Below, piece by piece: positions 1-63,280 of a DNA stretch of 64,000 nucleotides (its first letter is position 1; each line of letters begins with the position of its first letter). The stretch lies in the NCBI GenBank assembly GCA_032718475.1, contig JAUCBJ010002303.1, positions 1 through 64,000 on the forward strand. The letters are read 5' to 3'. The notes beneath the pieces were generated by a model, which saw only the letters and a list, made by a program, of their open reading frames with translations, did no database searches and had not been told where the DNA came from. This DNA is from Nemertoderma westbladi (lineage: Eukaryota; Animalia; Xenacoelomorpha). The position numbers were made by a program, and so were the translations under genes.

Positions 1-775
1 TGATAATTTGTTAAAAGCAGTTTATTAAAAATAATATAAAAAATATTTTAATATAGTGTTAGTAATTTAGTGATAAATTAATTAAAATTAGCGATTCAAG
101 CTGTGTGGAATTCAGTATGAAAAAATATAATATTTAAAAAATAATAGATAAATAATCATCTCCAGCCTTGACATCCAACTAACTCTACGGTGGCTGATAA
201 AAACATGCAAAGTAATAATTAGTGGTATTATATTAATTACTAACTAACTAATGAGGTTGAGGTTTTTTTTTATTAAAGCTAATAAATACACAATAATTAA
301 ACGGTACCGGTATAGTCATATACAAATCAATGATTAGATTCAAAGATTATTGTTCAAAATCGGAATTATTATAAAATAAATAAAATATACATTAAATACA
401 AACTGACAAAGACTGTTGAAAATAGTTACATACAATGTGTGTATGCTTTGAGGATATCCTCATGAGGTTTAACCTCGTTTCCATGATTCAAAATTAAAAT
501 TTATAGCTTTGGTATCATAGTTTGTTGTTAAGTTAAGTACAAAAATTAAAATTATTATGATATATTATAAAAATATTAGGTAGGAATTTTAGTTCATTTA
601 AGAAAATAAAAAGGAAGGATAATTATTGGTAGGACATTTATGTACAGTTGATTTAAAAATATTAAAAAAAGGAGTGTGGCGCATAATAATTGGTAGTCCG
701 AAATAAAATAATGTTAAATATTTGTGAAATCTAAATAGATATTATCCGTACAACTCCTGATTAGTTTAGATGTTT

Positions 776-2218
776 TTACTTCTTGGTACAGCCGAGAACC
801 GTTGCAAATGGTTTCAGCAGCTCGATAACGAGTTCCACATCGGCAGTACGAAGTCCCAAAGCAACAACGAAACCGTCGACGCCATCGCGAATAATGATAC
901 CAATACCGTCGACGCCTCTTCTAACGGGAGCAAACCCTGAGTAGACAGAGCGACCGCTACCGAAATCTATAACGTGTTCGAATTGGGACCAGTTACTTAT
1001 GGCGTAGGTTGACAGGGAGAGAACAGATCGAGCGAACGGGTTCACAAGCCAATCCTTCCTCTCCACGGACTGGAGATACGAGATCTGATTCCTAATGCGT
1101 TCCACGTCCATCTCCACCACGGAGTTCCTCACCAGTTCCGCGCATTCCAACACGATCTTGGATGCGTCCCTCGCCTCGTCTAGGATGACGTCACGTCGTA
1201 CTGAGGACCACGCATACAACGACGAGTTCCCGAAGAACCCATCGGGGAGCGGTGGGTCCAGCCGTCCGGACCTCCGTACCGACACCGCGATGGTAAGGAA
1301 CAAATCTTCCGGGAACTTCTCCCCGGCCCGGAAGCCTCTCGCCCGCGATACCGCCCACCACACAGCCCCGCAAATGACGTCATTGTTACTTAGCGACGAT
1401 TTCGGGCCTCGCAGTTGGGCGATGGCAGAACGTGAGAAACGTAACCGAAGGGTTTCCATGGAGGGAGCGAGGAAAGATAGATTGGCGATGAGTTTACCAC
1501 GTCGTCTGATTAACCAGGAGATTAAAGTGCGGATATAACTGGGAAACTTGGAAGGAGAATATAGTAAGGAGGGGGAGGGAGATTCATTAGCCCTAAACGG
1601 AGGGAAAGCGAATTCCCCTATTGAGTTTATAGAGATGTCCTGGGGTGATTCGCCTCGACAGAAGGAGGCAAAATTCCGAGCGAGAGAGAAGAAAGTACTA
1701 GCGTCAGCGATGCAATGGTGCAGGGCCATGGTGAGTGCACAGCCTCCATCGGAGAGCGTCGTGTGCTGAACGACAAACACCGGTGACGGATGGAGTACGC
1801 CGGTCCAACTGTCTGGATACGCGTCGAATATCTCCGCTACGGGGAGCAGCGAGGGGGGTAGGTCATCGGGGGAGGTTGTCGTTGTAAAGGAGAGGGACTC
1901 AGCCGATATTAGGAGGGCAGTCTCTGTGAAGGGGGAGCCTCCGCGCGACCATCGGCCGTCTGGGTGTCTACGGTACTCCCTGGCCAATACGGCGGCGTAT
2001 AGCGGGGTTGCTAGGAGACGCTGTAACCCCGATCGAAGGGATGAGAATGTGGGAGCCCCTCGGGAGTCGAACACCCAGAGGAAGCTGATGTAGCAGGGCG
2101 GGACTGTGTGGTCCAGTACGGTTAGGAATGTGTCTGTGAGGGGTCCGTACACAGCCGTGGTAGACAATGCCTCCTCGGTCGGTAGTCGTATCCGTTCAAG
2201 TTCATAAACATCATTCAT
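776..2218 (-). CDS. BAHD-family acyl-CoA-dependent acyltransferase (Transferase family), intronless
   Basis: 480-aa ORF with catalytic HxxxD (HHCIAD), SNNDVICGAVWWAVSRAR, RLDPPLPDGFFGN and a C-terminal DFGSG (DFGWG-like) motif. Clearly more GC-rich than its flanks. Confidence 0.88.
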   Translation of the reverse strand: MNDVYELERIRLPTEEALSTTAVYGPLTDTFLTVLDHTVPPCYISFLWVFDSRGAPTFSSLRSGLQRLLATPLYAAVLAREYRRHPDGRWSRGGSPFTETALLISAESLSFTTTTSPDDLPPSLLPVAEIFDAYPDSWTGVLHPSPVFVVQHTTLSDGGCALTMALHHCIADASTFFSLARNFASFCRGESPQDISINSIGEFAFPPFRANESPSPSLLYSPSKFPSYIRTLISWLIRRRGKLIANLSFLAPSMETLRLRFSRSAIAQLRGPKSSLSNNDVICGAVWWAVSRARGFRAGEKFPEDLFLTIAVSVRRSGRLDPPLPDGFFGNSSLYAWSSVRRDVILDEARDASKIVLECAELVRNSVVEMDVERIRNQISYLQSVERKDWLVNPFARSVLSLSTYAISNWSQFEHVIDFGSGRSVYSGFAPVRRGVDGIGIIIRDGVDGFVVALGLRTADVELVIELLKPFATVLGCTKK

Positions 2219-3368
2219 TGTAATTTGTAACCGTCGTGGGTGGGTAAGGTGGCCTTGATGGGTAAACTTCTTATATTAGTAGAGCAGGATCAGTTAGCCT
2301 ATGGTTTTCTGTGACAGATTTAATTAAGTTCTGGCCCTGTCTTCACTACCGAAACTTACAGTATGCCCGTATGGAGCCAAAAAGGTTACTGTATGTTTAC
2401 CATTTTTTTTAATCTTGTATTTCAAACTTGAACTTATAAAAGTATTGCAGTATTGACATTCAGTTGTTTAATTTTGTTAGGCGTACATCAGCACATTAAA
2501 TAATTAGAGGATAAGTAATGCTTTAACGGTAAACTATGAATTTAAGTTTAGGAGGATAGAAATTTCCTTCAGAATGAATTTTCGTCAATATTTTGAAATT
2601 GCCGTCACAATCTAACACTCACTGATTTACAGTGTAGCCAATTAAAAGTAAATATTCTAATTTGATTGCACAACTGACAACATACTCGGCGTTACCAACT
2701 TAGAAGTTAAATATTAATAAAACAGAATGATCAATTTTTCGCATTATTTGATTGTTGTTAAATTCAAAAGCAAGATATAATTAGAGATAGATAGGGCGAG
2801 GTAATAACTTTTGCTATTATTAAGATAAATATTGTTCTTATGGGAAAATTACGAAAAATCGAAGAGCGGACAGTGTTATTCACATGGAAGGCAAAATAGC
2901 TTTATTGATAACTTTTGGAGAAATAATTATACAAAAAAATTAAAATATTGTAAATCCGACAGCATCCCCATCCCCACCCCCTCCATGTTGTATAAAACAG
3001 GCTAGGAGGAAACTTGATGCAAATCACGTCTATTTTCCCATGGGGAGGGATGAATTTTGATAGAGTAGAAGCAGCTAATGTATAAAATTGTATCTGACTG
3101 TGAAGAAAACAAAATAAACTTTAATTATTGTCATTCATTACCTATTTGCTATTTATTGCAATGTATAAAATTGAGTACCATAAACCTGACTTAAAAGAAA
3201 ACAGAATAAACTGTAATTATTATAATTACCTACCTATATTTATTACGATGTATAATAATGAGTACCGGTACCGCATACTTCTAACTTATGTCTAACTTAT
3301 GTTCAGAAAGTACAGTGCAGGCATTGCACTGTCTACGGGTAATACGGGTGTGATTCCCTGATTAAACG

Positions 3369-3956
3369 TCAATTCTTTAAAAATGAGGGATCGTTTTGCA
3401 ATTTATTCAGAACCAATTCGTACCACTTTTGAACCTCTTTTAAAGGCACAAATAACTCCGATGGTTGTGGGGTCATTTGGCTTTGTGTTATTGCGAAGGA
3501 GGCGATATAATTAAACAGCTGATTGGCTAATTTCTGGGGCAAGTCTATATTCAGTGTTGCGTTAGCTGCATTCGGAGTTAATTGCGAGATTTCAGCATCC
3601 GACTTTATTTGTATTCCCAGTTGAGTCGGCGTAGTGGAAGTGAAAGCGTCGCCGAAACCGTGAGGTGTAGTCACAGCGCGGGATTGTAAGGAATCCAGTC
3701 CGGACAGTTTAAACACGGCGCTGGGTTTCGCGTTGCTAAGGAACCCGAGATACAGCCATGCCTGTTGGCCGTCGTTCCTAGGGAAACCGAAGTAAACGGC
3801 CCCTGCGAAACCGGTCGGAAAAGGGACCGCGCCGGTGAGGAAGACTACGAGATGGTGGATAGAAGTGGCGTCCGTCACGGTAGTGAGGAAGCTGGTTTCG
3901 TCGATTTGTTGGAAATCGGTTTGAACTAGACGCCCTGATGCTACACAGGCGAACAT
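3369..3956 (-). CDS. HIKESHI: Hikeshi (Hsp70 nuclear import carrier; OPI10/C11orf73 family), intronless
   Basis: N-terminus MFACVASGRLVQTDFQQ..HLVVFLTGAVPFP.GFAGAVYF, internal LGFLSNAKPSAVFK, and C-terminal FVPLKEVQKWYE...KLQNDPSF match the family; 195 aa. Confidence 0.93.
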   Translation of the reverse strand: MFACVASGRLVQTDFQQIDETSFLTTVTDATSIHHLVVFLTGAVPFPTGFAGAVYFGFPRNDGQQAWLYLGFLSNAKPSAVFKLSGLDSLQSRAVTTPHGFGDAFTSTTPTQLGIQIKSDAEISQLTPNAANATLNIDLPQKLANQLFNYIASFAITQSQMTPQPSELFVPLKEVQKWYELVLNKLQNDPSFLKN

Positions 3957-4106
3957 TGCACGGTAGGGCCTATTGTTATAAGCAGAATAACTTAGAAAGT
4001 GGCAAAGACTGACAAGAACTGTTGAACTGAAAATATCCGAATTTATGCCACCTATGCGTATGACCTACCAAGACAATACCAGCCTACCGCTGTATGGCTA
4101 TTCCGA

Positions 4107-4521
4107 GGTAATGTAGCGTTAGGTCTAAATCGGTATACCTTAGGTCCTGTAGCGTTAGGTCCCGTAGCTTTAGGTCCTGGCGCGTTAGGTCCTGTAGCAT
4201 TAGGTCCTGTAGCTTTAGGTCCTGGCGCATTAGGTCCTGTAGCATTAGGTCCTATAGCATATATCTGACTGTTGATTCTCTATTAATCTATTCTACAATA
4301 TCCCTAACTCTCGTTTGTTTTGGTTCCTTTCAACTCGCCTCTGTAACATGCTCTTTTACTAACCTGCCTGGTTTTGGAGGCAGACTGGACCTACTGACCT
4401 AATGGCACGGCCCTAACGCTACCAGGACCTAACGCCACGGATCTAATGCTACCAGAAACCTAATGCTACGGACCTAACGCTACCAAGGACCTAAAGCGCC
4501 AGGACCTAACGCACCATAACC
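4107..4521. mobile_element. Mutator/foldback-like MITE with repeat-built inverted arms and 9-bp TSD
   Basis: CTATTCCGA is directly repeated at 4098-4106 and 4522-4530. The left arm is built of GTAGCGTTAGGTCCT units and the right arm of the reverse complement AGGACCTAACGCTAC. Confidence 0.8.
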
Positions 4522-4769
4522 CTATTCCGACAGTAAACAAAACATGGACTCAGTCCAGCAGAAAATCGATCGTAATATCATTCAATCGCTGGATGAACTT
4601 GTAAGCCATGTGAATGACTTCTGCAACCTTATTGCCTTGGATTGGAACATATGGGATATGACGTATCGTGAAGATCTCGCGGTCGCGAGTCCCAGAAATT
4701 GCAAAAGGGTACCTACTCTACTTTCCCTTTGTTATTTTTACCTTAGACCTATGCCTATGACATAAGCTA

Positions 4770-5300: not shown

Positions 5301-7125
5301 ACTACTACTAGGATCGGCATGCTGCATTGCAGCTGCATTTTTAAGAATGCTGTGCCGGCTTGTCAACAAAATTGCACCGCCACAACTCCCTATCACCCAT
5401 GACATTTGCTAGATCATCCGCATCTTTAAGGCCAGTGTCCTTTAAGATGCGTCTCAAGAAAGTCATGGGCTGTCCACCATGCTTATTCACTCCATGAGGC
5501 TGCCAAAGTACAAGATTATGCACTGGCTGGTCCTCACGGCGAAAGCAATGTCCTGCAAAGCGGAGGCGATTTTGTTCTAGTGTCAAGCTTGGGGGAACCA
5601 ATGAGACACCTCCAATGTTATATAGTGTCTGGTTGGAGATGTGTGCATTGTACTAGACACAATGAACCCGGCGTAGCATTCTTGTGAATGGTGCCATCCA
5701 GAGATTTGGTGTCCTCAGCAGTTAGAGCCCAGCATGGACTCCCGTAGAGGAGTACTGGAACTACTGCTGCTCTAAATAATCGGACCTTAAGTTTCCGATT
5801 AATTCTCGGTGACTTCCAAATCCTGGAAAGCCTATTCAAGGCTGCCCATGCCTTTCCCTTACGTATTCGAAGGTCCTCACCTGACTTCCGGATCCATGAT
5901 CCCAGGTAACAGAAGTCGTCCACATGCTCAAGCATACCATCCTTTGAGCTTATGCTCATCCGATCAGAGACTTGCTGAGGACTTTCACAGTTAACGGTCA
6001 GAATTTTGGTCTTTCTGGAGTTAATAAAAAGACCAACACTAGAAGCAGCATGTTCTAATGAGCTGAGGAGCCGTTGGGCTCCCTCTAATGATTCTGAGAG
6101 TACTCCTAAGTCATCAGCAAAGTCTAGATCAGTTAGGTACTTGGCAGGATTTCCTCGACTTCTGGAGCCAGTAGGTGGAGTTATCATCACCCCATCATCA
6201 TTATGATGATCTAAGGACATGCGTAGAACATAGTCAACCACAATAATGAACAAGTATGGTGCAGGTGTGTCTCCTTGGAGGACGCCCCATAACACTTCAA
6301 ATTGTTCTGTGTCACCGTCAACAGTATAGACACAAATGTTGTCGAACCATCGTATACTGATCTGATTGCTGCAATAATTTCATCAGGAATCCCATATAAT
6401 GAAAGTATGCTGAACATACGTGAGCGAGAGACTGAATCAAAGGCCTTGAAGAAGTCAACAAAGATAACAGCCAGATGCCTGTCTTTCTTTTTTGATAATT
6501 CTTCAATTATCCTTCTAAGTGCCAAAATGGGCTCCATGGTCCCACGACCTTTACGGAACCCATTCTGATTTCCACGGAGCAGTCTCTCAATGGGATCCCT
6601 GATGCGATTTAATAGAATCCTATTGTATAGCTTTGCAGCAATCGAGATCAATGAGACTCCCCGAAAAGAACCATGGAGTGTTAGGTTGCCCTTCTTGGGA
6701 ACTGGCACCAACTTATTTGTTTTAATTTCTTGTGGGACTCTTGTTGTTCGGTACATGTCTACTATGATGGGATAGATGAGCTTTAAACACTCAGGTATTT
6801 TAAAGACCTCGGGGGGAACACCATCTACTCCACTGGCACGATTGGTCTTAATGCTCTTTGCAGCAGCCTTCACTTCTGCAAAGGAGATATCACCAATGGG
6901 AATATCTAGGAGTACAGACTCAGACACTTTTACTTCTATAAAGTTATCAGGCAATACCCTGTCATTATTGAGGAGCTTTTCAAAGTGGGCTTTCCAACCA
7001 TTGAGGCGATCGGCTGGTGATTCAGCCTTAACCTTGGTGGTTGGTTGGCTTTTCCGCCCAGTAAGCAGATTGATTGATTTCCATGCCTGGGATGATTGCC
7101 TGCTGTCGTCAGCATCATTGATGGC
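5301..7125 (-). mobile_element. 5'-truncated RTE-clade non-LTR retrotransposon with frameshifted RT
   Basis: RT motifs NQNGFRKGR, FVDFFKAFDSV, GVLQGDTPAPYLF and DLDFADD are spread over three ORFs. It has a (TAG)n tail at ~5301-5311 and a flanking 40-bp direct repeat. Confidence 0.9.
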
Positions 7126-7584
7126 AGTCAGAAATTGCCAGATAATGAGCTACAGTAGGCCTACTGTATCTTTGTCACAACAGTAATATTATTTTATACA
7201 CTTCCAGTACATATTCAAAGAGGTCTAGATACTTAAACTTTAAACGAATGTTCCAAGAAACACTCAATGGAGGTCAACTGCTTAAATGACCAAGGTGCCC
7301 AGGTTCAGGAAAGCAGGCTGACTACGTTATTTCGATTTACTATTGATGGCTACGTTAAAACATACAAGGGCAGTCATCTAACCCCAAGCGAAATCCCCAT
7401 TTAATTAACCACAACTTCCATCTCCATACCCCCTAAGATAAAATCGCTGTAAACCTTCCCAAGGGCGCGCTCCATGTAGGCGGGAGGGGGCTATCACCTT
7501 GGCATAATAGATCAGCGCAGTAGGGTATGGGTGTAAACGTTAAGCAGACACTGGTGCAGACACGTGGTGCAGACACTGGTACTG

Positions 7585-10500
7585 TGTAGTACTTCTGCTA
7601 TTTAGTCAGTTGTCAGTCATGCAGTACACTAGGCCTAATGCTTGGTTTGTTCTATATCCATACTTATATCAACATCATTAATATACGTCATACTAAGTTC
7701 ACCAAACCCCCCTACTCATATACGTCATGGCACACTGCTTCCTGGCTTCCGAACACGCCGATAAACTGGACCTACGAACTCCTACTATTCCCCATTAACA
7801 ACATGGCGACAGATCCACGCAACCCCCACACCTTCATCCTGCGAAGCTCCCCGCCCGCCTTTGACATCGAGTCGGAGAAGGCAACCAGCCGTGGGACCTC
7901 TCTCCGACCCGGCGAATCCCCCGGATGCTGCCGTCACCAACGACCTACGTCGATCCACCCTCTGTCTACACCACGCCGCGCTCACTTCGGCGTTCTCTCG
8001 CGCCACTAACGCGGTAGTAAAGGGGCTCGCCCTTACTACCGAACAAAACGCGAACTCGGAGGACGTCATCGATCAGTTGGGGCGGCACATCGATGGCGGG
8101 ACCAACCGACGGGTTTAACGGCAGCAATTGGCCCGACGTCACCGCCTCCCCGAGGAGAGTCCGGAGTCCTTCCTCGTCGCCCTCCGGGACCTGGCCGCCA
8201 AGTGCGACTTCGCCGCGCTCGCCACTAAGGAGGCCCACCAATAGGACCGCCTGCTGGACCAGTTCACTGCGGGATTCGGCGACAAAGAAGTTACAGAGCA
8301 ACTCCTCCGTCTCCCCAACGACTGTTCCCTCGGCGACGCACTGCGGCTCGCCCAAGCCGTCTGGGCAGCGCGCAAGGACGCCGCATCGCTCGCCCTGCCC
8401 TCGAACCCTGCCGCCGCCGTCACCAGCGTTACAGCCGCACCCCGGCGCTACCAACAGGGCCCGGTCCATGAGGAGCGACAACCGAAGTCATCCTCCAAGT
8501 GCCCTCAGTGCGGTTACCCCCCACACCAGGCCGGCAAACGTTGTCCGGGTGCTACGGCCCGTTGCCGCCACTGCAACCAATTCGGCCACTACGACCGAAT
8601 GTGCCGCTGCCACCCAACGCCGAACCCACGGACTAACTACACCACCCATGAACCCGACAACGGACGGGACGACCACGAGTCCGTCCACAACGCCCAGGTC
8701 TGGTCCACGATCCTGGACGGACTCGACCTGGACTCCATCCCGGACGTCTCGGCCACGGAGAGACTCGAGTTCCTCGAAACCGTGACCATCGGCTTCCAGG
8801 TCACCAAAGACCCGACCCGCGGTATCCCGGAGCTGCAGTTCCTTCCGGACTCCGGAGCCAACGTGACCACCATCCCTTGGCGGATCTACAGGGCGTTCGG
8901 AGGCCGCCACGAGAACCTCCGCCACCCCGACGGCCAACCGATGACGAGCCACAAGGACTCCGAGACCCCGCTGGCACACCGCCTCGCCAATGGGAGCCGC
9001 CTCGGGTGGACCTTTAAGGGGATATTTAACGCCACCCTCCAGTGCACCACCCTCGGAACTGTGTGCACCAACGGCCTATGGGTGCTCGACGGGTTGCAAC
9101 AGCCCCTCCTCTCCCGAAGGGTGTGTTTCACCCTGTGAGTACTGCGGAGTCCGATACTACGCGGTGGCAACTTGGCGGCAATTACGAACCACATGGTTAT
9201 AGAACAAACCAAGCCAATCACGCCGCCACCACCCACTGGTGCCCAGCCACCAGTCCCGGTTGGGCCACCCAAACCCAACGCCAACACACCGTCACCCCCA
9301 CCGGGCGCTCCGGCACCCCCAGTAGCATCCGCCCACTCCGACTGGGAAGCCCTACACCGCCGTCAGGGCAGTGCCGAGTCATGGCGGGAGGGGAACTCAC
9401 CATCAACCTCACCCCCGGCGCCCAGCCCAACCAGTCCTATACGAACCGCTCCATCCCTGTCAACCTGGAGGCCGCGTTCAACCGGGAACTCGACGACCAG
9501 ATCGCCATGGGAATCCTGGAGCCCGCCGGGGACGAGAACAACCCGGGCGAGTGGCTCAGCCCGATGGTCGTTACGCGGAAGAAAAGCGACCCCAACAAAG
9601 TCCGCATAACGGTTGATTTACGCGAACTTAATAAAGCCACAGTTCGCCCCAACTACTTCTCCCACTCTCCGTTCCACGTCGTCTCGAGAATTCCCACCTC
9701 GGCCCGCTACTTCACCGTTCGCGACGGTCTTAAAGGGTTTCACCAGGTGGGCCTCGACCTCGCCAGCCGCCGTCTCACCACCTTCACAACCCCACGCGGC
9801 CGCTTCCGCTACCGGCGGATGCCCATGGGGTGGCACGGCAGCTCCGATGTGTTTAACGCGAGGATGGCCTCAGCGGAGTCCCCAACATCGGGTGGATAGT
9901 GGAGGATGTCATCATCCACACTGACACGGCCGAGGAACACCCGGAGGCCGTCGCCCGCGTCCTCGCAGCCTGCGACACCGCCAACGTATCGCTGAACACC
10001 GACAAAGTTCAGTACTGCCTCCCCGAGGTCCGGTTCGGGGGCTACCTCGTCAGTCACGGGCACTACCGGATCGATCCGGCCCTCACCGACGACCTCTGCC
10101 ACTTCCCGGCCCCAACTAGCCGCCGCGAACTCCGTTCCTTCCTGGGCCTCGCTCAACAGTTGGGAAACTCGACTCCCGAGATCTCCCAACTCGTCGACCC
10201 CCTCCGCAGTCTCAACACGGACAGGGCCGCCTGGGTTTGGCTTCCGCAGCACCAGAACGCGTTCGAGGCAACCCGGACCGTGCTGTCGAGTCCACTATAC
10301 CTCTCGGGTTTCCACCCCGACAGGCGGACTGAACTACTGACTGACGCCTCGCGCCTCCACGGCCACGGCTTCCTCCTCCGGCAGTGGGACCCGGCCCCAA
10401 ACCAATGGCTCACCATCCAGTGCGACTCCCGAACACTCGCCAAACACGAGGCGAACTGGTCCGGGATGGCCGAGCTGGAGGCCCTCGGGGCGGCCTGGGC

Positions 10501-12165
10501 GGCTCATAAATGCCGCTACTTTCTACATGGGCTGAACCACTTCGAGCTAGTCACCGACTGCAGCCCCTTAATACCCATCCTAAATGACAGGCGACTCGAC
10601 CAAGTCACCAACGATCGGCTACTAAAGCTGAAGACGGCCCTCTCGCGGTTTAACTTTACCGCGCGCCACCAGAAGGGGGCCCGCCACCTCGTCGCCGACG
10701 CGTTCTCCCGCTGCCCGCGCAAAAAACCCACTCCGGACGACTTCGTCCTCGCAGCCGAAGATGACAACGACCACGAGTTTATTGTCTCTGCTGCTCTCGC
10801 CGAGTCCATTCCGACGATCGACGACCGCGATGCCCGCATCCAGGAGATCCGGACAGCCGGTGCCGTCGACCCGATCTACATGGCGCTCCTCGCCATGATC
10901 TGGGACGGCTGGCCGATGTCCCGCCACAACGTGGCTAACGACGACATGCGGCCCTACTTCCAGCACCGCACGGAACTGATGGTCCATGATGGAGTAATCC
11001 TTCGTGGGCCGCAGATCTACATCCCGGGGGCGCTCCGGCCCAACACCCTCCGACTGCTCCACGCCGCCCACCAGGGACTCAATAAAACCCGGGAACGTGC
11101 GGCCTGGTCGGTCTGGTGGCCTACGATATCGAACGACATCGCCGTCGCCATCGAACGCTGCCAGTCCTGCCAGTCGTCCCTGCCCTCCCACGCACCGGAA
11201 CCCCTCCAACGGAACCCCGAGGCCACCCGCCCATTCCAGAGGATCCACGCCGACCTGTTCGTCGTCGACAGCACCAACTACATGGTCGCTACCGACGAAT
11301 ATACCGGCTGGCCCGCGTTGTTCCTCCTCGGTTCCGATACGACATCCGCTGCCATCATCCGTAACCTCCGGCTCCTGTTCCTCGCCACAGCAGTCCCCCT
11401 GGAGTTCCACCCAGATGGCGGCCCACAGTTCGTATCCGAGGCCGTGAAGAACTTCCTCAACAACTGGGGGGTTCACTTAAACCCGTCGTCGCCCCACCTA
11501 CCCCGCACAAACGGCCACGCCGAAGCCGCCGTCAAGGCGATGAAGCGACTCGTCCGGGGCGCCGACCACGACGTCGACCTTATAGCCCAGGGTGTACTCG
11601 CGTTCCGCAACACCCCACGATATGGAGGGCGCTCACCTGCGGAACTCCTCTACGGACGCAATATCCGGGAAGCTTTGCCCGCCCACTTCAACTCATTCGA
11701 CCCCAAGTGGAGGAAGAGCTTCCAGGAACTCGACGAGGTTGCCGGACAGACTAAAAGCAACCTCCGCGCAGCCTACGACCTCCGCACCCGCCCCCTCCAT
11801 GTCATACCCGTAGGGACACCCGTCCTCGTCCAGGACGCTACCACCAAGCGTTGGACGGGACGAGGCGTGGTCGTCGAGGCGCTGGCGAACCACGACTACA
11901 TGGTCCGCCAGGAGAGTGGACGCGTCCTGCGGCGCAACCGCGTCTTCCTCCGCCCACGCACCGCCTCGGAAGGTGGACCACCCACTCCCACCCCGATCCT
12001 ACCCAGCCCTCCCCCGGTTATCCCGCAAATCGCTCCGCCCGCTGCCCCAGAGCCCGAGGCCCCTCGGCCAGTGACACCCCCGACCTGGGCCGACATCGCC
12101 TCACCGACCCCACCACAACGCGCGGACCAACGGACTCAATCAATTACACGTTCTGGGCGCAATAT
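7585..12165 (+). mobile_element. Ty3/Gypsy LTR retrotransposon, GC-rich, frameshifted, no 3' LTR visible
   Basis: Probable 5' LTR at ~7585-7803 followed by a TGGCGAC PBS-like site. Gag CCHC, protease FLPDSGA, RT (VRITVDLRELN, FRYRRMPMG), RNase H (TDAS) and integrase (HQG..CQSC, DGGPQF, NGHAE) occur in Gypsy order. Confidence 0.88.
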
Positions 12166-12475
12166 ACAGTGGTGTAGACACTGGTGCAGACAGTGGTGCA
12201 GACATTGTGCATACAGTGGTGCATACAGTGGTGCAGACAGTGGTGCAGACAGTGGTGCAGACTGTGGTACAGACACTGGTGCAGACACTGGTGCAGACAC
12301 TGGTGCAGACACTGGTGCAGACAGTGGTGCAGACAGTGGCGAAGACACTGGTGCAGACACTGGTGCAGACAGTGGTGCAGTCAGTGGTGCATACAGTGGT
12401 ACAGACTCTGGTGCAGACAGTGGTGCAGACACTGGTGCAGACAGTGGTGCAGACACTGGTGCAGACACCTGGTGA
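9899..12475 (+). pseudogene. Gypsy pol C-terminal part (RT end, RNase H, integrase) reading through into a minisatellite
   Basis: 858-aa ORF with RNase H and integrase motifs. The tail (GADT/GADS)n is the translated 12-bp repeat. Confidence 0.8.
12166..12473. repeat. 12-bp minisatellite (CAC/GTGGTGCAGA)n; a short tract of the same unit lies at 7545-7582
   Basis: About 25 tandem units. The same unit flanks the left end of the Gypsy element. Confidence 0.9.
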
Positions 12476-13426: not shown

Positions 13427-16400
13427 ATGAGTGAATCGGGCGAGACACCGCCGCGGACCCCGGACGAAGATCAAACGATCCGCGAGGCCGCGACCAAGCG
13501 ATACGGGCCCACGACGCCGGAGCCATCGATAACGGGCGAACCGGAAGTTGAGGATGAGGGGGGCCTGGAACCCGAAGTCGAGCTAAGAGAGAAAAAGAGC
13601 GAGATGGAGGGAGAAGGAGATGAGTCGACACGGGACGGAGAACGGCGCGCCGATGTCGCCGGCCAGCTACCGGCCGAGGGCGACGAGCGGCCCACCGAAA
13701 CGGCGACGGTGGGGCCGACGGTACGACGCCGGACGCGAAGAGACGGAGGAGAGATTGGTACCGATGTCGCCGGCCAGCTACAGGCCGAGGGCGATGGACG
13801 GCCCACCGGAACGGCGACGGTGGAGCCGCCGGTACGACGTCGAACCCGGAGGGACGGAGGAGAGGTCGGTGACGAGGACGTCGGGGTTTCAGAGCGACTT
13901 CGACGGGCCTACAACGCGACCCGAAGGATGATGAAGGACGCCAAGAAGGAAGGGGCGAAGGTAGACGAGGTGAGACTGAGAAAGCGACTAGGTGAGTCGG
14001 ATAGACACATAAATTACCTAATACGTTTTGGGCAAAGAGAACTAGCCGAAACGAGAGCACACGAGATTGCTGGGGAACTGTTTGAACTATGGGAGTGTGG
14101 GAGTATGGAACCTAGTGTAGCGTCAGTGTACATAGGGCCATGCTTGGTCGATGCCCGGGGAGTAAAACCAGTAGGCTGGAGGGAACCCGAAGGGGGCGAA
14201 TCCGAGGTTAACCCCGAGGATTCGGCCTCGTCGGTCGGAGAAAGCTCCGGGAAGCGGGGGGAAATCAGTAGGTCGGGAAGGCGGGGGAAATCCGTCGTAA
14301 CCGATAAGTCTGTTACATCCTCCGCGAAAGGAAGAGCGGTGAGAGAGATAGGTGCCGAATATCGTCTCAGCATGGCAGCGAAAGATCATAGAGAAATGAA
14401 GGAACGGCTAGAGGAAGGGAGAGTGCGGTTAGAGAGGGAAACGGCATTGCTTAAAGAAACAGGAGAGAGGGCCGAAAGGGCTTTGAAAAGCCTAAGGGAG
14501 TATGATGAGATAGAGGAAAGGGAGTGTAGGGAGCGTGAGGCGAGAGAGGAAAGGGGACGCAAGGAGCGTGAGGCAAGGGAACGCAAGGAGCGTGAGGCGG
14601 AACGCAAGGAGCGTGAGGCGAGAAGGGAAAAGGAACGCAAGGAGCGTGAGGCGAGAGAGGAAGGGGAACGCAAGGAGCGTGAGGCGAGAGAGGAAGGGGA
14701 ACGCAAGGAGCGTGAGGCAAGGGAGGAAAGGGAACGCAAGGAGCGTGAGGCGGAACGCAAGGAGCGTGAGGCGAGAGAGGAAAAGGAACGCAAGGAGCGC
14801 GAAGTGAGACGAAGGGAGAGTATTAAGAGTGCTGCAGAGTCGGCCATTAGGGACACCCGGGAGCGTGAGAGGAGAGTGGCAGAGACTGAGGGAGAAAACA
14901 AGAAAATAGAGAGACTACAGAGTGAGTCTGCGGGAGATGAGATTAAACGGGCGCACGAGTTGCAACTCGTGCGAAAAGCGCCGTCTGAAAGCGGGGCCGG
15001 CTCGAGTATTTTTAGGGAGCCGGGGGCCGTAGAAACATTTATTAATACCCCACTGACAGGGACCGCACGACAGACTCAAGACTGGTGCGACCGTACGAGC
15101 GGGGGGGGGTAATAATAATATTGGTACAGTAGACGTTGTTAATATTGATAATACCGTATGGGACAACACTAATCAAACCTTTATTACAGGGAATGCTTTA
15201 CATAGTGGTAGTAATTTAAATTTAAATCAGAACGCCCCTAGTATTAATGTAGGAAATAACTCTAATATTAATGTAGCTACGCAAAATAATTCAGATAATC
15301 AAAGTAATGACCCAGATTCGAACCTACAAAATAATTTAAATAACGCAATTACGCAAAATAATTCGAATAATTTAAATAATGACCCATGCCCGAATTTACA
15401 AAATAATTCAGATAACGTAGTCGTGCTGAATAATATAAATAACTTTGTTCCAAACGAACAAAATAACTCCGTTTCCAATATGGGTGCTATTAATGTAAAC
15501 GCGTTGGGCCTGCATAACCAGGAAACAGAGGGCCTGGTAGGCCACGTAGTTGGTAGGGAGGGAGTAGAGGGCCTGGTAGGCCACGCAATAGCAGAGGGAG
15601 AGGCGGGGGTGAATGGACCCGACCGCAGTAGGGTTGATGTGTCGACTAGAGAGGTATATAATAGCGGGGAGAGAGGTAGCGAAGTTAGATGTAGCGAGTG
15701 GGGGGGGGGGGGGCTACGAGGACCCCACAACAGAGAGTTAGCGGCGAGAGGGGGGGGGCAGGGAGTGTCCCACACCTGTCAGCGGATAATGCGAGGGCCG
15801 AAATAGGTAAACCGCAACGACCGGCGACGGAAAGTAATAGGGGGATCGCGAGTATCCCCAGCGACGTGCGACCGAGCAGAGAGAGACAGGTTGACGTCGC
15901 GAGAGGGCGGACGGAGCGTCGAGCCCGATCAGAGGAGGGAAGAAGAACAGTGGGGTTTAACCGGGAGGTCGACGAGAGATCTCGCGAGCGGGAATATTCC
16001 ACTGATAGGAGAAGAAAGGAAGACAGTAGTAGAAGTATCGCTGCAAACGATAGAAGAGCGAGGACGGACAGCGAACCGTCGGTAGTCGAGATGAGAACGG
16101 AGAGTCAGTGGGGTCGGACTCCGGGAGATTGCCGTCGCCCCGGAGGGATGCGACCCGGTGAGATGCATTACACGCCGAGAGAGGGGTACACGATGTACCG
16201 GTACGAAGATGAGAACAGTAGAGGGGGGGGGTCAAAGATAAACTTTCCGACGGGATATACCTACCGAACGAGAATACGGTAGCCGCGGGGAGGATTATTC
16301 GAGAAGAATAAACTTCGATCCCGAACAACACATGCAGACTGTAGGGCATACTGTAGGTCTTACTGCACATACCGTAGGCCATACTGAGAGAGGCAATGTA

Positions 16401-19400
16401 GGCGATAGGATAGCGCGGACGACGGAATTAAACCCCGAAGTCGCGGAATACATACCGGCGGGTAGGCCAGAAGCAGATAGGCCTATACCGGTACCAGCAC
16501 AGCAGTATGACTACAGCATGCGAGGACATAACATATACCCAGGGGAGGGGGGAATTATTGCGGATAGGTGCATGGGCCCCAACATATTAACATCAACCCC
16601 ATTCCCAAACATACTGGTGGGGGGGGGGGCAGGGTGACATTCCCCCATCACAATATCAACAATATACCCCGATGGTAGCAAGAACAACGAGACCCTTGGA
16701 CGAAAACAGATCGTGTGACACAGATATATGGAGGGGGCCGCTACCCCCAATGACATACCCAAGCCAGAGAAGGTCAAGAAGTAGGACAGACGGAACGCAC
16801 CAAACAGGGGAAACTATACAGCACCCGTCGAATCCATTGGAAGCGCAGGCGATAGGGATGGCCACGTTGATCGATGCTTTGAAAACGAGGATCGAGTTAC
16901 CACCCGTGGAACCATTCAAGTTCGACGGGAGTAGGCCGGAAGAATATTTACAATTTCGGCGAATGTATAGTAACGAAATACTAACAAAAAACTTGACGCA
17001 GGCGGAGTGCCTAAAGTATCTACAAGTATACACGGGAGGCCCAGCATACGATATCGTGAGGCAATACCAAGGAATAGAGGGCGGCTTCACGACAGCATGG
17101 CGGGCACTGGATAGGGAATACGGGCACCCGGCCAAGATCATCAGGCAGACGCTGAGAGGCATAACATCGGGTGGCCTACAGGACAACCCCGTTAGCATTA
17201 AGACGTTTGCTAACAAAGTCGAAAAGGCGCTAATCGTACTGAAGACGCTAGACGCGCCGTACGAGCTCAATGCGTCCAACAACATCACCACGATAGCGCA
17301 GGCACTACCGAACTGGCTGCGCAACAAGTGGAGAAAAATCGCCTTCTCCACTCGAGATAAGAAGGGTGCGGAACCAGGTTTAGAAGAAATGTCAAACTTC
17401 TTAAATTACGAGGCTGAACTAATAACGGACCCAGTCTATAGTGAAGATAGCCTGGGAAAGGGACCAAAGACAGATCACTACAGACCGAAACCAGAGCACA
17501 ATACATCAAACGCATTGCCGAGGCTCAGGCAATCATTGCCATACGCAGCGACGCAGGGGACTGCAAGTCCACAGGCAAACGAAGATAAGACAACATCATG
17601 GAACGGACAGGGGAACAATAACAACATGAATAAACATAACCCCAGTACGTCCAGTAGGCCAAATCCAGTCAATAAGAATAGTAGGGACTTTGGTACGAAC
17701 ATAACTGCGATACGCAATGCATTGTATAAAGAGGGCTACGACCCAAAGAGCAAATGCCAGTTACACGCAAATGCGCTTCATAAAACCATGAACTGCAGGT
17801 ACTGGCAGGCGCTACCGAGGCAAGACCAGATAGATTACGCGTCGAGCAATAGAATCTGCTCGCGATGTGTAAAGAGTGGACACAAGGCCAGGGAATGCCA
17901 AGAGAAGCCGGTCAAGTTTGGCCAAAGGAGAGGCCAAACGATGGCAACGAGCACGGTAGGGGCGAAGAAGAGAGGCACGGTGTTACTCGGAGTAGTACCG
18001 GTGCGAGTGATCGGGGAAGGCAATCGATCAGTAACAACACTAATGGATAGTGGAGCTGCCTTCACATTAGTAGAGGAATGGGTAGCCGAAGAAATAGGAT
18101 TGAGAACAAGGCCAAGCAGGATGGCGGTAACAACCATCTCTAGCAAAGATGAGATCCTAGAGATGAGGACAGGACGGTGCGCAATTGCAGCAGTAGCACC
18201 AGGATGCGATTATGGGGCAACCATCGACCCCATCCAAGTAATAGAGTCAATTAACATCAATGCCAGGCGGCCAACCAACATCGAGGTCGAGCAATACAAA
18301 TTCCTGGACGACATTGACTTCTCGATCCCAGACGTGGACGTTAGGAAGGTATCCATCATAGTAGGAATGGACTGCCCGACGGCCCACGAAAGAATGCAAA
18401 CGGTCTTCGGCGAAGACAAGCAGAGTGACCCGGTGGCTATATTAACACCATTCGGGTGGACGCTGAGTGGTCCAATTAAGAGCAAGATACCATTCAGGAT
18501 GTCGGAGACATCAGGATGCATGTTCGCGGGAACAGTGCAGGAAATGGGTGATGAGGGAGCAGAGGAGCAGCTTAAAAGACTGCTCAGACAAGACTTTGAG
18601 GGACTGAAAGAGACACCGGGGTCGGGACCTCGGTAGAAGACAAACAGGCTCTACAAAGCGTGGAGGAATCGATGACGTGTGATGAGGGGCGGTATACAAT
18701 AGGAATGGTATGGAAACTACCGAAGATACCGCTACCCGATAATAGGGGGATGGTACTCACGAGACTTCGTAAGCTGAAACAAACACTAAAACGGAGCCCC
18801 GAGAAGAACGAGTACATTCACAAAACCATTAAGAAGTACGTCGAGAAAGGATGGGCCGTGGAGTTACCGGTCGACGAGCCGAACACGGACAGGACATACT
18901 ACCTGCCACTCCACGTAGCATTAGACCCAAAGAAAGGTAAACTGAGGATGGTAGTCGATGCATCGGCAAAGACCGACGGAAAATGCTTAAACGATTACCT
19001 GTTGGAAGGCCCAAATATTTACAATTCGGGCATAGAAGTACTACTTAGATTCAGGAATGGGAAACACGCCTTCACGTGTGACATAGAAGGCATGTTCAAC
19101 CAGGTCCGTGTAACGGAAGAAGACAGTGACAGTCAACGCTTCTTATGGTATAACGGCGAAGAAGAACCGCCGATAATACCAGCGTATAAGATGGTAGTAC
19201 AAAACATGGGGGCCAAGTCGTCCTCATTTACGTCGACTATGGCAGTGAGAGACACGGTAAAGGGGGAGGAAGATAGATACAGCAGTAGGGCCGTCGATAT
19301 GATCCGACGCGGCTTCTACGTAGACGACGGTATGGAGTCTGGAAATACGGTTGAGGAGATACTGGAAACGGCGCGAGGTTCGCGACATCCTGAAAGGATC

Positions 19401-21954
19401 CGGCTTCAACCTGACCAAATTCCAATCCAGTTCAGAAGAATTTATCAAGGCAATAGAGGACAAGAAACCGGAATCGACCATGGACAACCCTACAACAGCC
19501 AAAGGACAGGACATGGCGAATAAGAGAACACAATCGCAGCAAAAGGCATTGGGAATCGTGTGGGATAGAGGAACAGATGAACTGAAGTATCAGCTGAGCC
19601 AAGAGGGCGCAGACACCCATACGAAGAGGGGTTATGTATCGTATATAGCAAGGATATACGATCCCCTAGGCCTAGCATCCCCATTACTAGTCACGGGGAA
19701 ACAGATACTCAAGAGAGTATATAAATTGAAGGATGAGTGGGACGTAGAGGTACCAGAGGACATCAAGAAACAGTGGAGAAAATGGACAGGAGACTTGGAA
19801 AGAATGGGAACATACAACATGTCGCGAGTGTATTTTCCGGACGGGAACATGACGAGTCTGGACCTACATATGTTCTCCGATGCGTCGTTAGAGGCATACG
19901 GAGCGGCACTCTATTTAGTACAACGAGAGGGGGCTCACGAGCCCAGACTAGCCTTTAGCAAAGCTAAGTCAACGCCGCCAGATTCAGCATCTGTTCCCAA
20001 GTTAGAATTGACAGCTGCGAGACTAGGAGTTAGAGCCACAGCCTACCTAGTGGATACTATTCCCAACATAGTGGAGACACACTACTGGACGGACTCCATG
20101 GTAGTGCTTGGTTGGCTACACAACGAAAAGACGAGATACCCAATATTCGTCGCGAATAGAGTGGACGAAATAAGGGCGAGCACAGAACTGGAAAGGTGGC
20201 ACTACTGCCCAACAGACGAGAACCCAGCGGACTTGCTGTCGAGGGGCGTGGAACGCCACACTTTCTTAAAGAAGGAAGTATTGTGGCAACATGGGCCACA
20301 ATTTCTGAGCGATAAAGAGGCCTGGCCGCCAATGAGAAAGGTGGAGCCGGGCTCAGAAGTGGTGTCAGAGGGAGAAGAGGGAGACTCGGAGGGAGAAGAG
20401 ATATACTCCCAGATGGTGAGGGAGATTAGGGACGTGCAACCAAAGCAAGAACTACGCGATAACCCGACGGACAAACTCCTCAGCTATAGTTCTAGTTGGT
20501 ACAAGACCAAGAAACTGGTGGCGTACTGGAGAGCCTTCGGGAATTTCCTCGCGGGAGTTAATAAGGAGAAGAAAACCAGGGAAACCATAGATCTGGAAGG
20601 AGCGGCCAAGGCAATAATCTGCTATGAACAACGGAAGAACTACGGCGATGAGGTGGAACGTGTCGGCAACCAACAGCACCTCCGACGGGACAGCGAGTTG
20701 ATTACGCTGTCGCCACAACTCAACGAGGATGGGATTCTAGTAATGAATTCTAGGGTGGGATATAACAACAGTATAGTCGTGCCACCGAAACCCATCATCA
20801 TTCCCACAGGATCGCCTATAGTCCACCAGATCATATGGGACTCCCACAAATCGATATTGCATGGGGGCACCAACCGAACCCTCACAGAGATAAGGAGGAC
20901 CTATTGGGTCAAACAATTAAGAAAGAAGGTTAAAGCGGTAGTGGGGCAGTGCCAGACCTGCCGACGAGCGAAGAAGGAACGAGCCGTACAGGAGATGGCG
21001 CCACTACCGGCGAGTAGGGTAAGACAGCACGACCCGCCATTTACGCATTGCGGTGTGGACATGTTCGGGCCGATAAAGATCAAGGTGATGCGACACACGG
21101 AGAAACGCTACGGTATTATCTTCGTATGCAACAATACGCGGGCGGTAGGGATAGAACTCGCCCAAGATGCAACCGCATCAGCATTCATTAACGCCTTAGA
21201 AAGGTTTAGGGACCGCAAAGGTGGGACGATCGCAGTGATATACAGCGACAACGGCACCAACTTTGTGGGCGCAGAGAGTGAGATGGCAGAGGCCTTGGAA
21301 ATCTTAGAAGGAGAAGAAGTCAGGGCAGCCATGAGAAGACGACAAGTAAGGTGGGAGAGAAGGACGCCGTATGCACCACATACACTAGGATACGTCGAGA
21401 GACTGGTGGGCAGTTCAAAGCGTCTAATGACGAAGTTAATGAACACCCACATGGTCACTGAGGACGTCTTACGGACAGTACTTGCGAAGTGCGAGGGGAT
21501 CATTAATAGCAGACCGCTATACCCGGAGAATGATGACCCTGAGTCATTAGACGTGCTGACGCCTAGCCATTTTCTGATGGAAAGGCCAGCGACCATCGAT
21601 ATGCGGGGTGTAGACCCAGATGATATACATTCCCGCCAGAGTTGGAAAGTCGCTAAAGCAATAAGCGCAGAGTATTGGAGGAGGTGGGTAGAAGAATACC
21701 TACCCACGCTCCATAAGCGAAGCAAGTGGAGGAAGCCGAACAGGGAGTTAAGAGAGGGAGATCTCGTAATCGTCACGGATGATACTATCATCAACAACCA
21801 GTGGCGGTTGGCGAGAGTCGTAGGCACCTACTCCGACGAGGACGGAAGAGTCCGATCGGTAGAAGTGCGGATAGGTGGAAAGATAGGTGCGAAAGACAGA
21901 AAAACCTACAGGAGAGCAGTAGGTAAATGCTGTCTTCTAGAAGGGGCACCTTAA
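13427..21954 (+). pseudogene. BEL/Pao gag-pol polyprotein, broken by several frameshifts
   Basis: Long coiled-coil and Asn-rich N-terminus, Gag core FDGSRPEEY, CCHC knuckles, protease LMDSGA, RT FYVDD, RNase H FSDAS..AYGA, integrase GVDMFGP/SDNGTNF/VERLV. Frameshifts fall at G-runs (~15105, 15705, 16225, 16625) and at ~18615 and ~19370. Confidence 0.9.
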
Positions 21955-40240: not shown

Positions 40241-40483
40241 CTACTCTAGTGCATACTGTCAGACTGTATATAAAGAAATATAAACAATAATATAAAGAAA
40301 TATTTCATGGGATATTTATATTTATAAGATAGGACATTGTTCATACTGATACTGTATAGTGGTACTTTTATAAACATTACAACCCTAAATAATGGTGATG
40401 TCAATTTAAACAGTATTAGTATACGACTACCAACTACTGTAGATAACATAAATAATCTAATAACTGACAATATAAATCTGTAA

Positions 40484-60196: not shown

Positions 60197-60602
60197 TCAT
60201 ATTTAGCTTGTAAACACGGCAGCTATCTTCGCTTATATTTACTGACCTGATTTTTTGGAATTTTACTTACATATAAAGATTTGAATTGACATAATTTGTA
60301 TTGCATTCTATCTATTTACATACAAACATCAATATGTTAATGGTAACACGTGGATTTTATATCGTGTTCGGCTTAAATATAAAAGGGGGCCTTTATTCAA
60401 ATGTGGTTCAATGAACCTCCCCACATAAGGTGTACAATGCAACGACAGTATATCACAGAGATAATAATGACTCATAATGAGTCATAATATCTCGACATAC
60501 TGTACACAACACAAACTGTAAATGGTTCCTTTAGAAGATTACCTCACCTCGCTACCTACGTACTACCTAGGCCTATTTAAGCTAATACCGGAAACTCACT
60601 CA

Positions 60603-60815
<213 letters not shown>

Positions 60816-61129
60816 TTATTATCAACTATTATTGTTATTTATTTTATTATTACTATTATAATTACTATTACAGGCACCACACGTCTAATAAATAATACCC
60901 ACTGCTTTGGCTCGCCCCAAAATAAGGAACGACAGTTGACTGGTGGGGACACGGATCACGCTTAAACAAATGAAAATAATGGTGATTCGAGCAAGCTGGA
61001 AATCACACATTGTAGTGTAGTTTAGTCTCATAATCTAGCAATTTATAAGATTACAATTATTAATTTAATCTCATAAAGTGTTAGATTAACTGTAATTTTT
61101 GTAATTTTTCAATGGAAGTGTTTACTTAC

Positions 61130-61297
61130 TTGGAAGTATGTAAACTGGGTATGGTAAAATAGTCTGATAATATGGAAACTGTTTCCCACCGCGAGAACCA
61201 ACTCGAACTTGTGGAGGTTCCGTTTGATATAGCCGTTGAATCCGAGGCAGAGAATCTTGAACAAAGCCTCGATGTCAAATATTATAGTGAACACAAC
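61130..61297 (-). CDS. NALCN: NALCN exon (domain II S2-S3)
   Basis: TAG|VVFTIIFDIEALFKILCLGFNGYIKRNLHKFELVL...YHTQFTYFQ|GTAAG. Confidence 0.92.
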
Positions 61298-61585
61298 CTA
61301 AAAGGAGTGTGTTGGTTAAAAAATATCTAATGTGCCGCCGACACGCCGTCGTTAGGGAGTTGTTCATCATAAATTCACTAATGTTGGAAGCTAATGTTTA
61401 GGTTTCGGCCTACCGGTACAGTTTCTACTGCAGCCCTGTCATACAGTACCTATTTTATTATTTTATTATTATATTATTTTATTAACAACAAATATTTTCC
61501 TGAAGAAGGGCTTAGGGCAGAAATCGATAGAAACTCAAATTATTTTGTTAGTTTTCAGGGAAATAACGGATCAAAAGATGTCAAT

Positions 61586-62452
61586 AAGGGCACCACTATC
61601 TCAACCTGTGTCTGTCTGTCCGTTCGTCGGTCGGTCGGTCTTCCTGTCTGTGGTCTAATTTTTAATAGCTTATTTCTCAGGAACTTTCCACTTTCTTGTA
61701 CTAAAACAAGATTGATATATCGGATGGTCGGATTGATATATGAAAAATGATTCAAAAGTTGGCCGCTAGGGGACTACTTGTCTAAACAATACATCCCATT
61801 CATTACATTGCTTTTAATCCGTTCAAGTTGAGTCAGCTGTGTCTTTCAAAGGAGGCTAATCCGTCTGCAGTTCTCCAGTTTACCGCTAGGTGGCAAAATA
61901 TCTGAAGGTTTAATTACTCTAATACAGCCTGCGTCTTTATGTGGACGGTTATCGGTCTGCAGTGCTCCAGTCTCCCACATGAGGGCAAAATACCTGAAGG
62001 TTTTAATCTTATCCCATCTCCGTGATTTTAATCTGTTACGCTGAATCTTGCCATATATGTCTTAGTCACCATGCTTCGTCTTTGTGAGAAAGTTGATCAT
62101 TCGAAAGTTATCCAGTCTTCCGCTACGGTCCTAGATGACTGAAAGATGCTACCATCTTTCAGTCATCTTAATCCGTTTAGGCTGAAACTTGGCATATTTT
62201 TTATGTACTATAAAATTGGCAGCGTCTTTGAGCGATGCAGCTCCATCTACCCTAAGTTTGCCGCTATTGAGCGCACTTGGGAAATTAATGCGTGCAAGGA
62301 CAGAGATGGACTTCTGATTTATACAACCAGTTTAACGCAAACTGAACACAGCACTCATTGGTATTTTGGAAAGACGGTTTTCGTATATCTAATGGGGACT
62401 ACTACATTTACTTATATAGCATATCGTGCTGCGCGAAGGCCCCAGAACTTGT
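61586..62452 (+). mobile_element. Helentron-like non-autonomous element in a NALCN intron
   Basis: (CTGT)/(TCGG) microsatellite near the left end; right end CGTGCTGCGCGAAGGCCCCAGAAC as in the other copies. Confidence 0.5.
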
Positions 62453-62530
62453 ATTATGTTCATATTATATTATGGATTGGCAAGGCAAAAGTAGGTATGT
62501 GAGAAGATGAAATTATATAGGTAATAGTAC

Positions 62531-62758
62531 CTGGGCCGAATATAAGAAACCGTCGTATTCCTGCAATTCTTTAACTCTATTAATCCGGTAGGAAGTCGAG
62601 GCAGCCAATGCAGCATCAATGAATACCAGACACAACATCCCAATGTGGAAGACGTTGGATTGCAGGATACATTGGAATATGGTTGGAGCCACTCCAGCGG
62701 GTTTGTTCACATCCATCGTGACCAACTGCCAGTTGCGTCGGACAGACGGTACTAGTTT
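62531..62758 (-). CDS. NALCN: NALCN exon (I-II linker and domain II S1)
   Basis: TAG|KLVPSVRRNWQLVTMDVNKPAGVAP...QSNVFH...FLYSAQ|GT. Confidence 0.9.
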
Positions 62759-63019
62759 CTATAATATTTATTAAAAACAATTAATTGACGTACGAACTTT
62801 TTAGAAGAATTTGTACACTCACATAAACAGTTGCAAATTATAAATAGTACCTGACTTGACTTCTGAAGGCTTATGTAGAAAAATAGAACTCAATATATAA
62901 TACTTTTATAAAATTAGAATCTCCTTTTTTTGAGCTTTAAAGTAAAAAAAAACATTTAACATTTTATTAATAGGTTGCCTGTTGTAGTTTTGCTTTTTAT
63001 ACATAGTAGCTATTAATTA

Positions 63020-63280
<261 letters not shown>

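Follow-up and report, generated by a model that had tools for sequence, protein, structure and literature searches.

BAHD enzymes take part in making and detoxifying specialised metabolites, and most of those known come from plants and fungi. An intact gene of this family on an animal contig raises the question of where it came from and how, in its present place, it is expressed. The stretch of DNA analysed here, termed the window, is 64,000 nucleotides long, and an earlier note, made from its letters, had read one of its open reading frames as a BAHD acyltransferase, a candidate for horizontal transfer.

A BAHD acyltransferase gene

The coding sequence and the main features of its product are as follows.

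776..2218, minus strand: coding sequence for a BAHD/Transferase-family acyltransferase of 480 aa, in one coding exon without internal stop
1703..1717, minus strand: HxxxD catalytic motif, H168-C-I-A-D172 (aa 168-172)
953..967, minus strand: DFGSG (aa 418-422), a one-change variant of the DFGWG motif
1469..1540, minus strand: two predicted helices (aa 227-250), the first amphipathic; subfamily-wide, absent from plant, Basidiobolus and Pigoraptor rows

According to an excerpt of PMC13415971, HXXXD and DFGWG-type motifs define BAHD enzymes. The earlier note had reported an intact frame with HxxxD and DFGxG, and this is what was found: 480 aa, no stop, H168-D172 and DFGSG. In a 122-sequence alignment, H168 and D172 are the sole nearly invariant columns. 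DFGSG is kept in the window protein, whereas a DFGWG-like motif is lost in most other members of its subfamily; a PPLP...FGN stretch is also present. With 69.4 bits (E 3.1e-19), the frame exceeds the curated cut-off of 22.7 for the Pfam Transferase profile (PF02458). A structure model built from the 122-sequence alignment, which contained BAHD-family rows, reached a pLDDT of 91.2 and a pTM of 0.91, compared with a pLDDT of 38 for an earlier model from 3 sequences. The best Foldseek matches of the model are plant HCTs (TM 0.67-0.74, ~20% identity), and its match to HCT 4g0b (E 5e-29, TM 0.71) indicates the two-domain CoA-dependent acyltransferase fold. By all membership criteria of sequence and predicted fold, the window gene is a BAHD-family acyltransferase, in agreement with the identity first proposed for it.

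A simple hydropathy scan found no signal peptide or membrane segment, and the highest 19-residue hydropathy (1.61) lies on C-terminal strands rather than at the N-terminus. The stretch at aa ~227-250 is basic, aromatic and amphipathic, is common to the subfamily, and is modelled as two helices. Its hydrophobic moment is 0.55-0.79 in the 8 members that fully cover it versus 0.27-0.56 in 10 outside rows, ranges that touch.

Among characterised enzymes, plant BAHDs of clade V (HCT 4g0b, 6dd2 and 5fal; SHT 6lpv) have the same two-domain fold, HxxxD, DFGxG and PPLP...FGN motifs, and likewise no signal peptide. The window protein differs from them in its ~20% identity, its placement in a separate clade and its extra amphipathic helices at 227-250. 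Fungal TRI101 (2zba, 3b30) and Kickxellales LinB belong to the same Pfam family and fold; however, in the fold search TRI101 comes out well below HCT, an ascomycete-type grouping was rejected (see below), and LinB is likened by description only. An excerpt of PMC10478498 describes LinB as an intronless transferase of 477 aa, confined to its lineage and lacking close relatives, that forms an amide from acyl-CoA.

The earlier note had also called the gene intronless and GC-rich. The coding region is indeed uninterrupted, although the 5ʹ UTR seems, from one cDNA-like contig, to contain an intron of 2,212 nt. Likewise, the GC content of the frame (0.55) exceeds that of its flanks (0.23 and 0.33), but its GC3 of 0.61 is little above that of the NALCN exons (0.55) and Hikeshi (0.52), with DHDH at 0.45. 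Because Hikeshi and both DHDH genes are intronless as well and the GC3 of the frame is near that of host genes, these properties weigh little for transfer; GC, GC3, CpG and intron absence were all dropped as transfer evidence.

Probable residence in the animal genome

Three other loci of the window bear on the question of where the gene resides.

3369..3956, minus strand: Hikeshi (host gene), intronless, on the same strand as BAHD and within the putative BAHD intron
60600..63200, minus strand: four NALCN exons (human residues about 316-531), an animal marker
40484-41515 and 55496-56518: two DHDH paralogs (87% identity), both without introns, produced by a ~1.75-kb duplication (40431-42181 / 55453-57177)

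Hikeshi lies 1,150 bp from BAHD, the 1.15 kb originally noted, and its frame matches human Hikeshi, the only comparison made, over the full length (E 1.2e-46, about 81/194 identical). The NALCN exons were correctly recognised too: those at ~60.6, 61.1, 62.5 and 63.0 kb match human NALCN with E values of 1e-20, 4e-21, 3e-10 and 1e-8, respectively, and lie 58 kb from BAHD behind many transposons.

Four sequencing runs from three studies (2016, 2019 and 2023), all under one organism label, contain at least half of the words of 600-4100. The comparison of reads covered the window up to 4,900, and one DNA run may be the source of the window assembly. In run X1, a single 2,947-nt contig spans 301-3232 at a depth of 9.4, and further, overlapping contigs run on through Hikeshi at 8.5-9.2; in run X2, the corresponding depths are 20-23 versus 25.7. 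The contigs of X1 and X2 tile both genes at equal depth, with none holding the two together, and this bears out the proposed integration beside Hikeshi. Repeats in the flanks reach tens to hundreds of times single-copy depth in X1 and X2. Coverage in X3 consists of repeats only and that in X5 of parts of Hikeshi and repeats, so that holes there are uninformative. Across the three studies, allelic differences in the BAHD-Hikeshi block are below 1.5%. Because three studies contain the block, at a single-copy depth equal to that of Hikeshi, contamination is unlikely, and the BAHD gene very probably sits in the animal's genome.

The NALCN homology stops at human residue ~531-533 with the exon near 60,600 (minus strand), and no NALCN exon was found below 60,600, either with Pfam among 114 further minus-strand frames drawn from 271 hydrophobic ones or in a six-frame motif search. 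The stop reflects either an intron of more than 60 kb that nests DHDH, Hikeshi and BAHD, or a truncated gene, or an assembly join. Just upstream of the first DHDH, three tandem 780-bp units of 99% identity occupy 37900-40240 and represent a recent duplication or an assembly artefact. A 736-aa frame at 31257-33467 has no Pfam match and three Cys/His knuckle-like motifs near its C-terminus; judged from its sequence, it is possibly a transposon protein. Two tandem BEL/Pao-type LTR copies span 13427-29509, the first with DUF1759, Peptidase_A17, DUF5641 and integrase domains and the second broken into several frames. A LINE-type reverse transcriptase (minus strand) and two LTR retrotransposons, all three broken, lie at 5344-7149, 7638-12475 and 47300-52400.

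Relatives of the protein

A full HMMER profile search over 1.84 billion representatives, EukProt and NCBI proteins among them, returned 344 hits at E<=1e-3, of which 9 reached E<=1e-30, and after the tenth hit the E values jump (2.6e-28 to 2.4e-18); a word-index protein search had given 2 relatives. The representatives stand for clusters at 50% identity and can hide named members. Among the source records of the 9 best hits and P0098, one in ten names an organism, the ichthyosporean Abeoforma whisleri, and no named animal, choanoflagellate or second ichthyosporean was found among these 10 best hits. When 21 of the 150 listed hits were checked, 3 named an organism (Abeoforma, Basidiobolus and Pigoraptor) and 18 named none. 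None of the 21 is a named animal. The Basidiobolus and Pigoraptor hits fall outside the top group; Pigoraptor is a filasterean with another BAHD, outside the subfamily.

The Abeoforma protein (EP00121_P007781, here P0095) has a profile E value of 2e-48 and 28% identity over its full length. It belongs to the same subfamily and shares the amphipathic stretch, but differs from the window protein by its long branch and its lack of DFGxG. A reference title in PMC11286789 indicates that Abeoforma cultures derive from invertebrate digestive tracts.

The nearest full-length relative, L001, is encoded on a metagenome contig of 62% GC and is 34% identical over the full length. Its gene (71-2666 of that contig) has five predicted exons and four microsatellite-rich GT-AG introns, and had been shortened by gene callers to a 'hypothetical protein' of 289 aa. 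Exon-sized fragments that carry no organism label are 43-52% identical to the window protein. Among the hits compared, ~52% is the highest identity of any relative, and since no relative exceeds it, the BAHD frame has probably been long-lasting. Two short patterns from a two-sequence alignment, a weak probe, found no relatives in metagenome, viral or prokaryote contigs. The nearest Atlas clusters are mostly Ascomycota and Zoopagomycota, in an Atlas that holds clusters of at least 50 members only. In the mostly open-access literature searched, no report was found of this BAHD subfamily or of a BAHD in Ichthyosporea.

Origin of the gene

The alignment used for phylogeny comprised 118 of the 150 listed hits and four other rows (122 sequences). 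A FastTree analysis used its 114 rows of at least 230 aa, with P0097, P0248 and P0239 left out and the spliced L001 added, and a second, careful tree of 35 of the 114 rows agrees with it. One clade (100/99) unites the window protein, L001, seven environmental proteins and Abeoforma, the last on a long branch outside the others (99/96). Within this clade, the window protein pairs with L001 as sister at 93/79, an unstarred placement; the two differ in letter make-up from the other members of the subfamily, and a grouping of the window protein with the seven environmental rows instead was not rejected (p-AU 0.064). A quick tree with 12 fragments gave no starred placement for the window protein.

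Approximately unbiased (AU) tests rejected groupings with five plant-type rows (p-AU 3e-88; two of the five confirmed as plant-like against the PDB) and with five ascomycete-type rows (p-AU 4e-134; one of the five named). The donor was therefore not a plant or an ascomycete, and a plant or fungal source of the whitefly kind is not supported. In the whitefly Bemisia tabaci, BtPMaT1, BtPMaT2 and other plant-derived genes are likewise BAHDs that reside in an animal's genome and whose presence is put down to horizontal transfer, as far as an excerpt of PMC9599486 describes them; three rows of Table 1 there give 40-58% identity between the plant-derived genes and plant proteins. The window gene, unlike these, has no plant or fungal nearest relative, and its closest kin are unicellular or label-less eukaryotes.

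The end branch of the window protein measures 0.32, versus a stem of 1.2 for the host DHDH genes, a rough comparison across different trees. The DHDH tree (42 of 86 hits and the two window copies) places the host on a long, unplaced branch, and all named DHDH relatives are animals, at 38-47% identity. Because the BAHD branch is short and the DHDH stem long in a fast-evolving animal, a late arrival fits better than long descent. The proposal of horizontal transfer is partly borne out, by a resident gene with no named animal among the 21 hits checked, and is weakened in that the sole named member of the subfamily is a unicellular relative of animals.

Proposed transcription from the Hikeshi start region

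The BAHD transcript and the transposable element at its putative first splice site comprise the following features.

4521..4534, minus strand: putative first exon and transcription start, 14 nt, at the loose end of an X4 contig
4107..4521, no strand: MITE-like foldback element of 415 bp, its arms in inverted repeat, flanked by a 9-bp target duplication (4098-4106 / 4522-4530)
2309..4520, minus strand: putative GT-AG 5ʹ UTR intron, 2,212 nt, holding the whole of Hikeshi and most of the MITE-like element (one contig, one run)
2219..2308, minus strand: 5ʹ UTR part of exon 2, 90 nt, after acceptor CAG, no upstream ATG
122..775, minus strand: 3ʹ UTR as far as the X4 contig reaches, with AATAAA signals at 269 and 21

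No run catalogued as RNA was among those found to contain the block. Run X4 is catalogued as 'DNA?' but behaves as cDNA. It covers 122-2309 and about 3194-4206, with no coverage at 2388-2969 or above 4521, and both of its gene contigs (BAHD and Hikeshi) end in a template-switch adapter, the sequence of which was identified from an excerpt of 10.1101/2019.12.11.873505. RNA sequencing was among the checks proposed in the earlier note, and this one cDNA-like run, which covers BAHD with an adapter end, indicates that the gene is apparently transcribed. Contig depth in X4 is 125 for BAHD and 823-993 for Hikeshi, a poor measure of expression level.

The X4 BAHD contig consists of the adapter, then 14 nt identical to window 4534-4521, then the sequence from position 2308. 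The 14-nt leader matches the window at 4534-4521 only, where it is followed by GT at 4520, and the acceptor CAG stands at 2311-2309. The chance of an exact 14-mer in 10 kb upstream is 5e-5, and that of one with GT after it 3e-6. The joint 4521-2308 is absent from the joints listed for the run comparison. A trans-spliced leader was ruled out, as the 14 nt match the genome 2.2 kb upstream and are followed there by GT, and the X4 Hikeshi contig lacks them.

The GT donor of the putative intron coincides with the first bases of the MITE-like element end. Terminal inverted repeats, a 9-bp target duplication and high copy number are all present in this element, and eight X2 contigs diverge at 4107, confirming that end of it. 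The target duplication presumably links the element to the Mutator type; Rfam gave a sub-threshold hairpin match (39 bits versus a cut-off of 144). A second possible GT donor, recognised in the sequence at ~4087, is present without the element, so the splice arrangement may predate the insertion.

Once the element and one copy of the duplication are removed, position 4534 stands 154 nt ahead of the Hikeshi ATG, a usual distance for a 5ʹ UTR, and is therefore likely to be Hikeshi's own start. Taken with the single transcript contig, this suggests that transcription of BAHD begins at the start site of its neighbour Hikeshi. In X4, Hikeshi transcripts extend into the arm of the MITE-like element; the contig starts at ~4222, inside the arm and not at 4534, which may mark a second start or a stall in the hairpin.

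Selection on the coding sequence

Differences from the window were listed completely for X2 and X4 and partially for X1. X2 has 5 changes in the frame, all non-synonymous, and X4 has 5, of which 4 are non-synonymous. The distinct listed variants number at least 5 non-synonymous and at least 2 synonymous, a pN/pS of ~0.9 from tiny numbers, which gives no indication of purifying selection. Of the five non-synonymous variants, three introduce residues that other members of the subfamily have at that column, and the other two affect unconserved columns. One variant, P325H, shared by X2 and X4, falls in the PPLP motif; His also occupies position 325 in the relative P0090. X2 differs from the window at 5 of 1443 bases in the frame versus 14 of 1480 in the flanks (p 0.06). 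None of X1, X2 and X4 has a deletion in 776-1999, while the flanks carry many indels. The X4 insertions include 2 letters within 2000-2309, a range covering the first 219 coding bases and the 5ʹ UTR, and the X1 insertions are likewise unplaced.

Alternative explanations

Taken together, these results make it fairly probable that the BAHD gene was acquired long ago from a microbial eukaryote and is expressed via the start region of the host Hikeshi gene. Vertical descent would instead place the subfamily in the holozoan ancestor and have it kept only in Abeoforma, some uncultured relatives and this lineage (perhaps with the seven-protein clade), lost in most animals, and moved beside Hikeshi later. 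Because the sole named member is a unicellular relative of animals, descent with loss, a rival that the earlier note had left unweighed, keeps some probability: that member is an ichthyosporean that branches outside the animal gene, another BAHD occurs in a filasterean, intron absence and GC do not mark the gene as foreign, and L001 and the seven environmental rows carry no organism label. If L001 came from a choanoflagellate, the branching order, with Abeoforma outside and the animal gene inside, would agree with the species tree, and the seven environmental proteins could themselves be animal. However, the ten best hits include no named animal, choanoflagellate or second ichthyosporean despite a search of EukProt and NCBI proteins, many independent losses are required, and the branch is short for so divergent an animal; vertical descent is considered unlikely. 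Direct acquisition from a plant or ascomycete fungus, in the manner of the whitefly, can draw on the plant HCTs that are the best solved-structure matches and on the mostly ascomycete and zoopagomycete Atlas clusters, but these matches are at ~20-26% identity only, the Atlas is limited to clusters of at least 50 members, and AU tests reject both groupings, which leaves this origin next to no probability.

A transferred gene might also be transcribed only as leaky read-through from the Hikeshi region while it drifts without a selected function. The 5 non-synonymous versus 2 synonymous variants, among them P325H in the PPLP motif of X2 and X4, would agree with drift, as would a transcript that seems to need a donor created by a transposon end. 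Yet the frame is full-length with intact catalytic motifs, 776-1999 is free of deletions in three studies amid indel-rich flanks, the frame has probably been long-lasting given relatives of at most ~52% identity, the His at 325 occurs in P0090, and the possible GT at ~4087 may take the arrangement back before the element; drift is accordingly held to be quite improbable. More improbable still is a BAHD-Hikeshi block from a symbiont or parasite that was joined to animal sequence by contamination or misassembly. The read comparison does extend only to 4,900, short of the NALCN exons, the 60 kb below 60,600 without a further detectable NALCN exon could mean a join, no repeat of the BAHD flank apart from G runs recurs elsewhere in the window, and Hikeshi was compared with human only. 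Against this, the block is carried by the studies of 2016, 2019 and 2023 with allelic differences below 1.5%, its flanking repeats are among the high-copy repeats of the same runs, and Hikeshi matches its human counterpart over the full length and has the deeper transcript in X4.

Proposed mechanism and function

Under acquisition from a microbial eukaryote, the preferred reading, expression would proceed as follows. Transcription would start at 4534, at Hikeshi's own start, and some transcripts would use the GT donor in the MITE-like element end and continue at the acceptor that precedes the BAHD ATG by 90 nt. The Hikeshi gene would thereby be spliced out whole, and BAHD expressed from the Hikeshi start region. 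The mostly open-access literature searched gave no account of a horizontally acquired gene in an animal whose expression relies on splicing across an adjacent gene.

The product would be a soluble, cytosolic enzyme, as judged from its family. An excerpt of PMC13415971 describes BAHD enzymes as mostly soluble and cytosolic, with a His that activates a hydroxyl or amine for attack on acyl-CoA to give an ester or amide. By the same family logic, His168 would deprotonate a hydroxyl or amine, which would attack an acyl-CoA and yield an ester or amide. The acceptor, the weakest step of the proposal, may be a small lipophilic compound of dietary or microbial origin that is inactivated or modified by acylation, and the amphipathic helices at 227-250 may act as a lid or membrane contact. 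Detoxification of dietary or microbial compounds is a first guess at the role, and biosynthesis of a defensive ester or amide a second.

Significance

In the mostly open-access literature searched, animal BAHDs were found reported only in whiteflies, where they are plant-derived (excerpt of PMC9599486), and the BAHD coverage of PMC11449225 is, in the part available, of plants and algae only. The window gene would add a separate animal case, one that belongs to another, uncharacterised branch of the family. It would open a route to natural-product chemistry in an invertebrate and offer a testable answer to how a foreign coding sequence comes to be expressed, namely, by being spliced to the start of a housekeeping gene already in place. 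If vertical descent were true after all, animals would have lost a metabolic enzyme family that their ancestor had. In a broader and rather doubtful picture, an unrecognised subfamily spread across unicellular holozoans and other microbial eukaryotes entered or persisted in at least one animal lineage, with the seven-protein clade possibly a second, expanded animal branch; the window gene would then have captured the housekeeping promoter of Hikeshi via a transposon-end donor and may give this animal a plant-like acylation chemistry.
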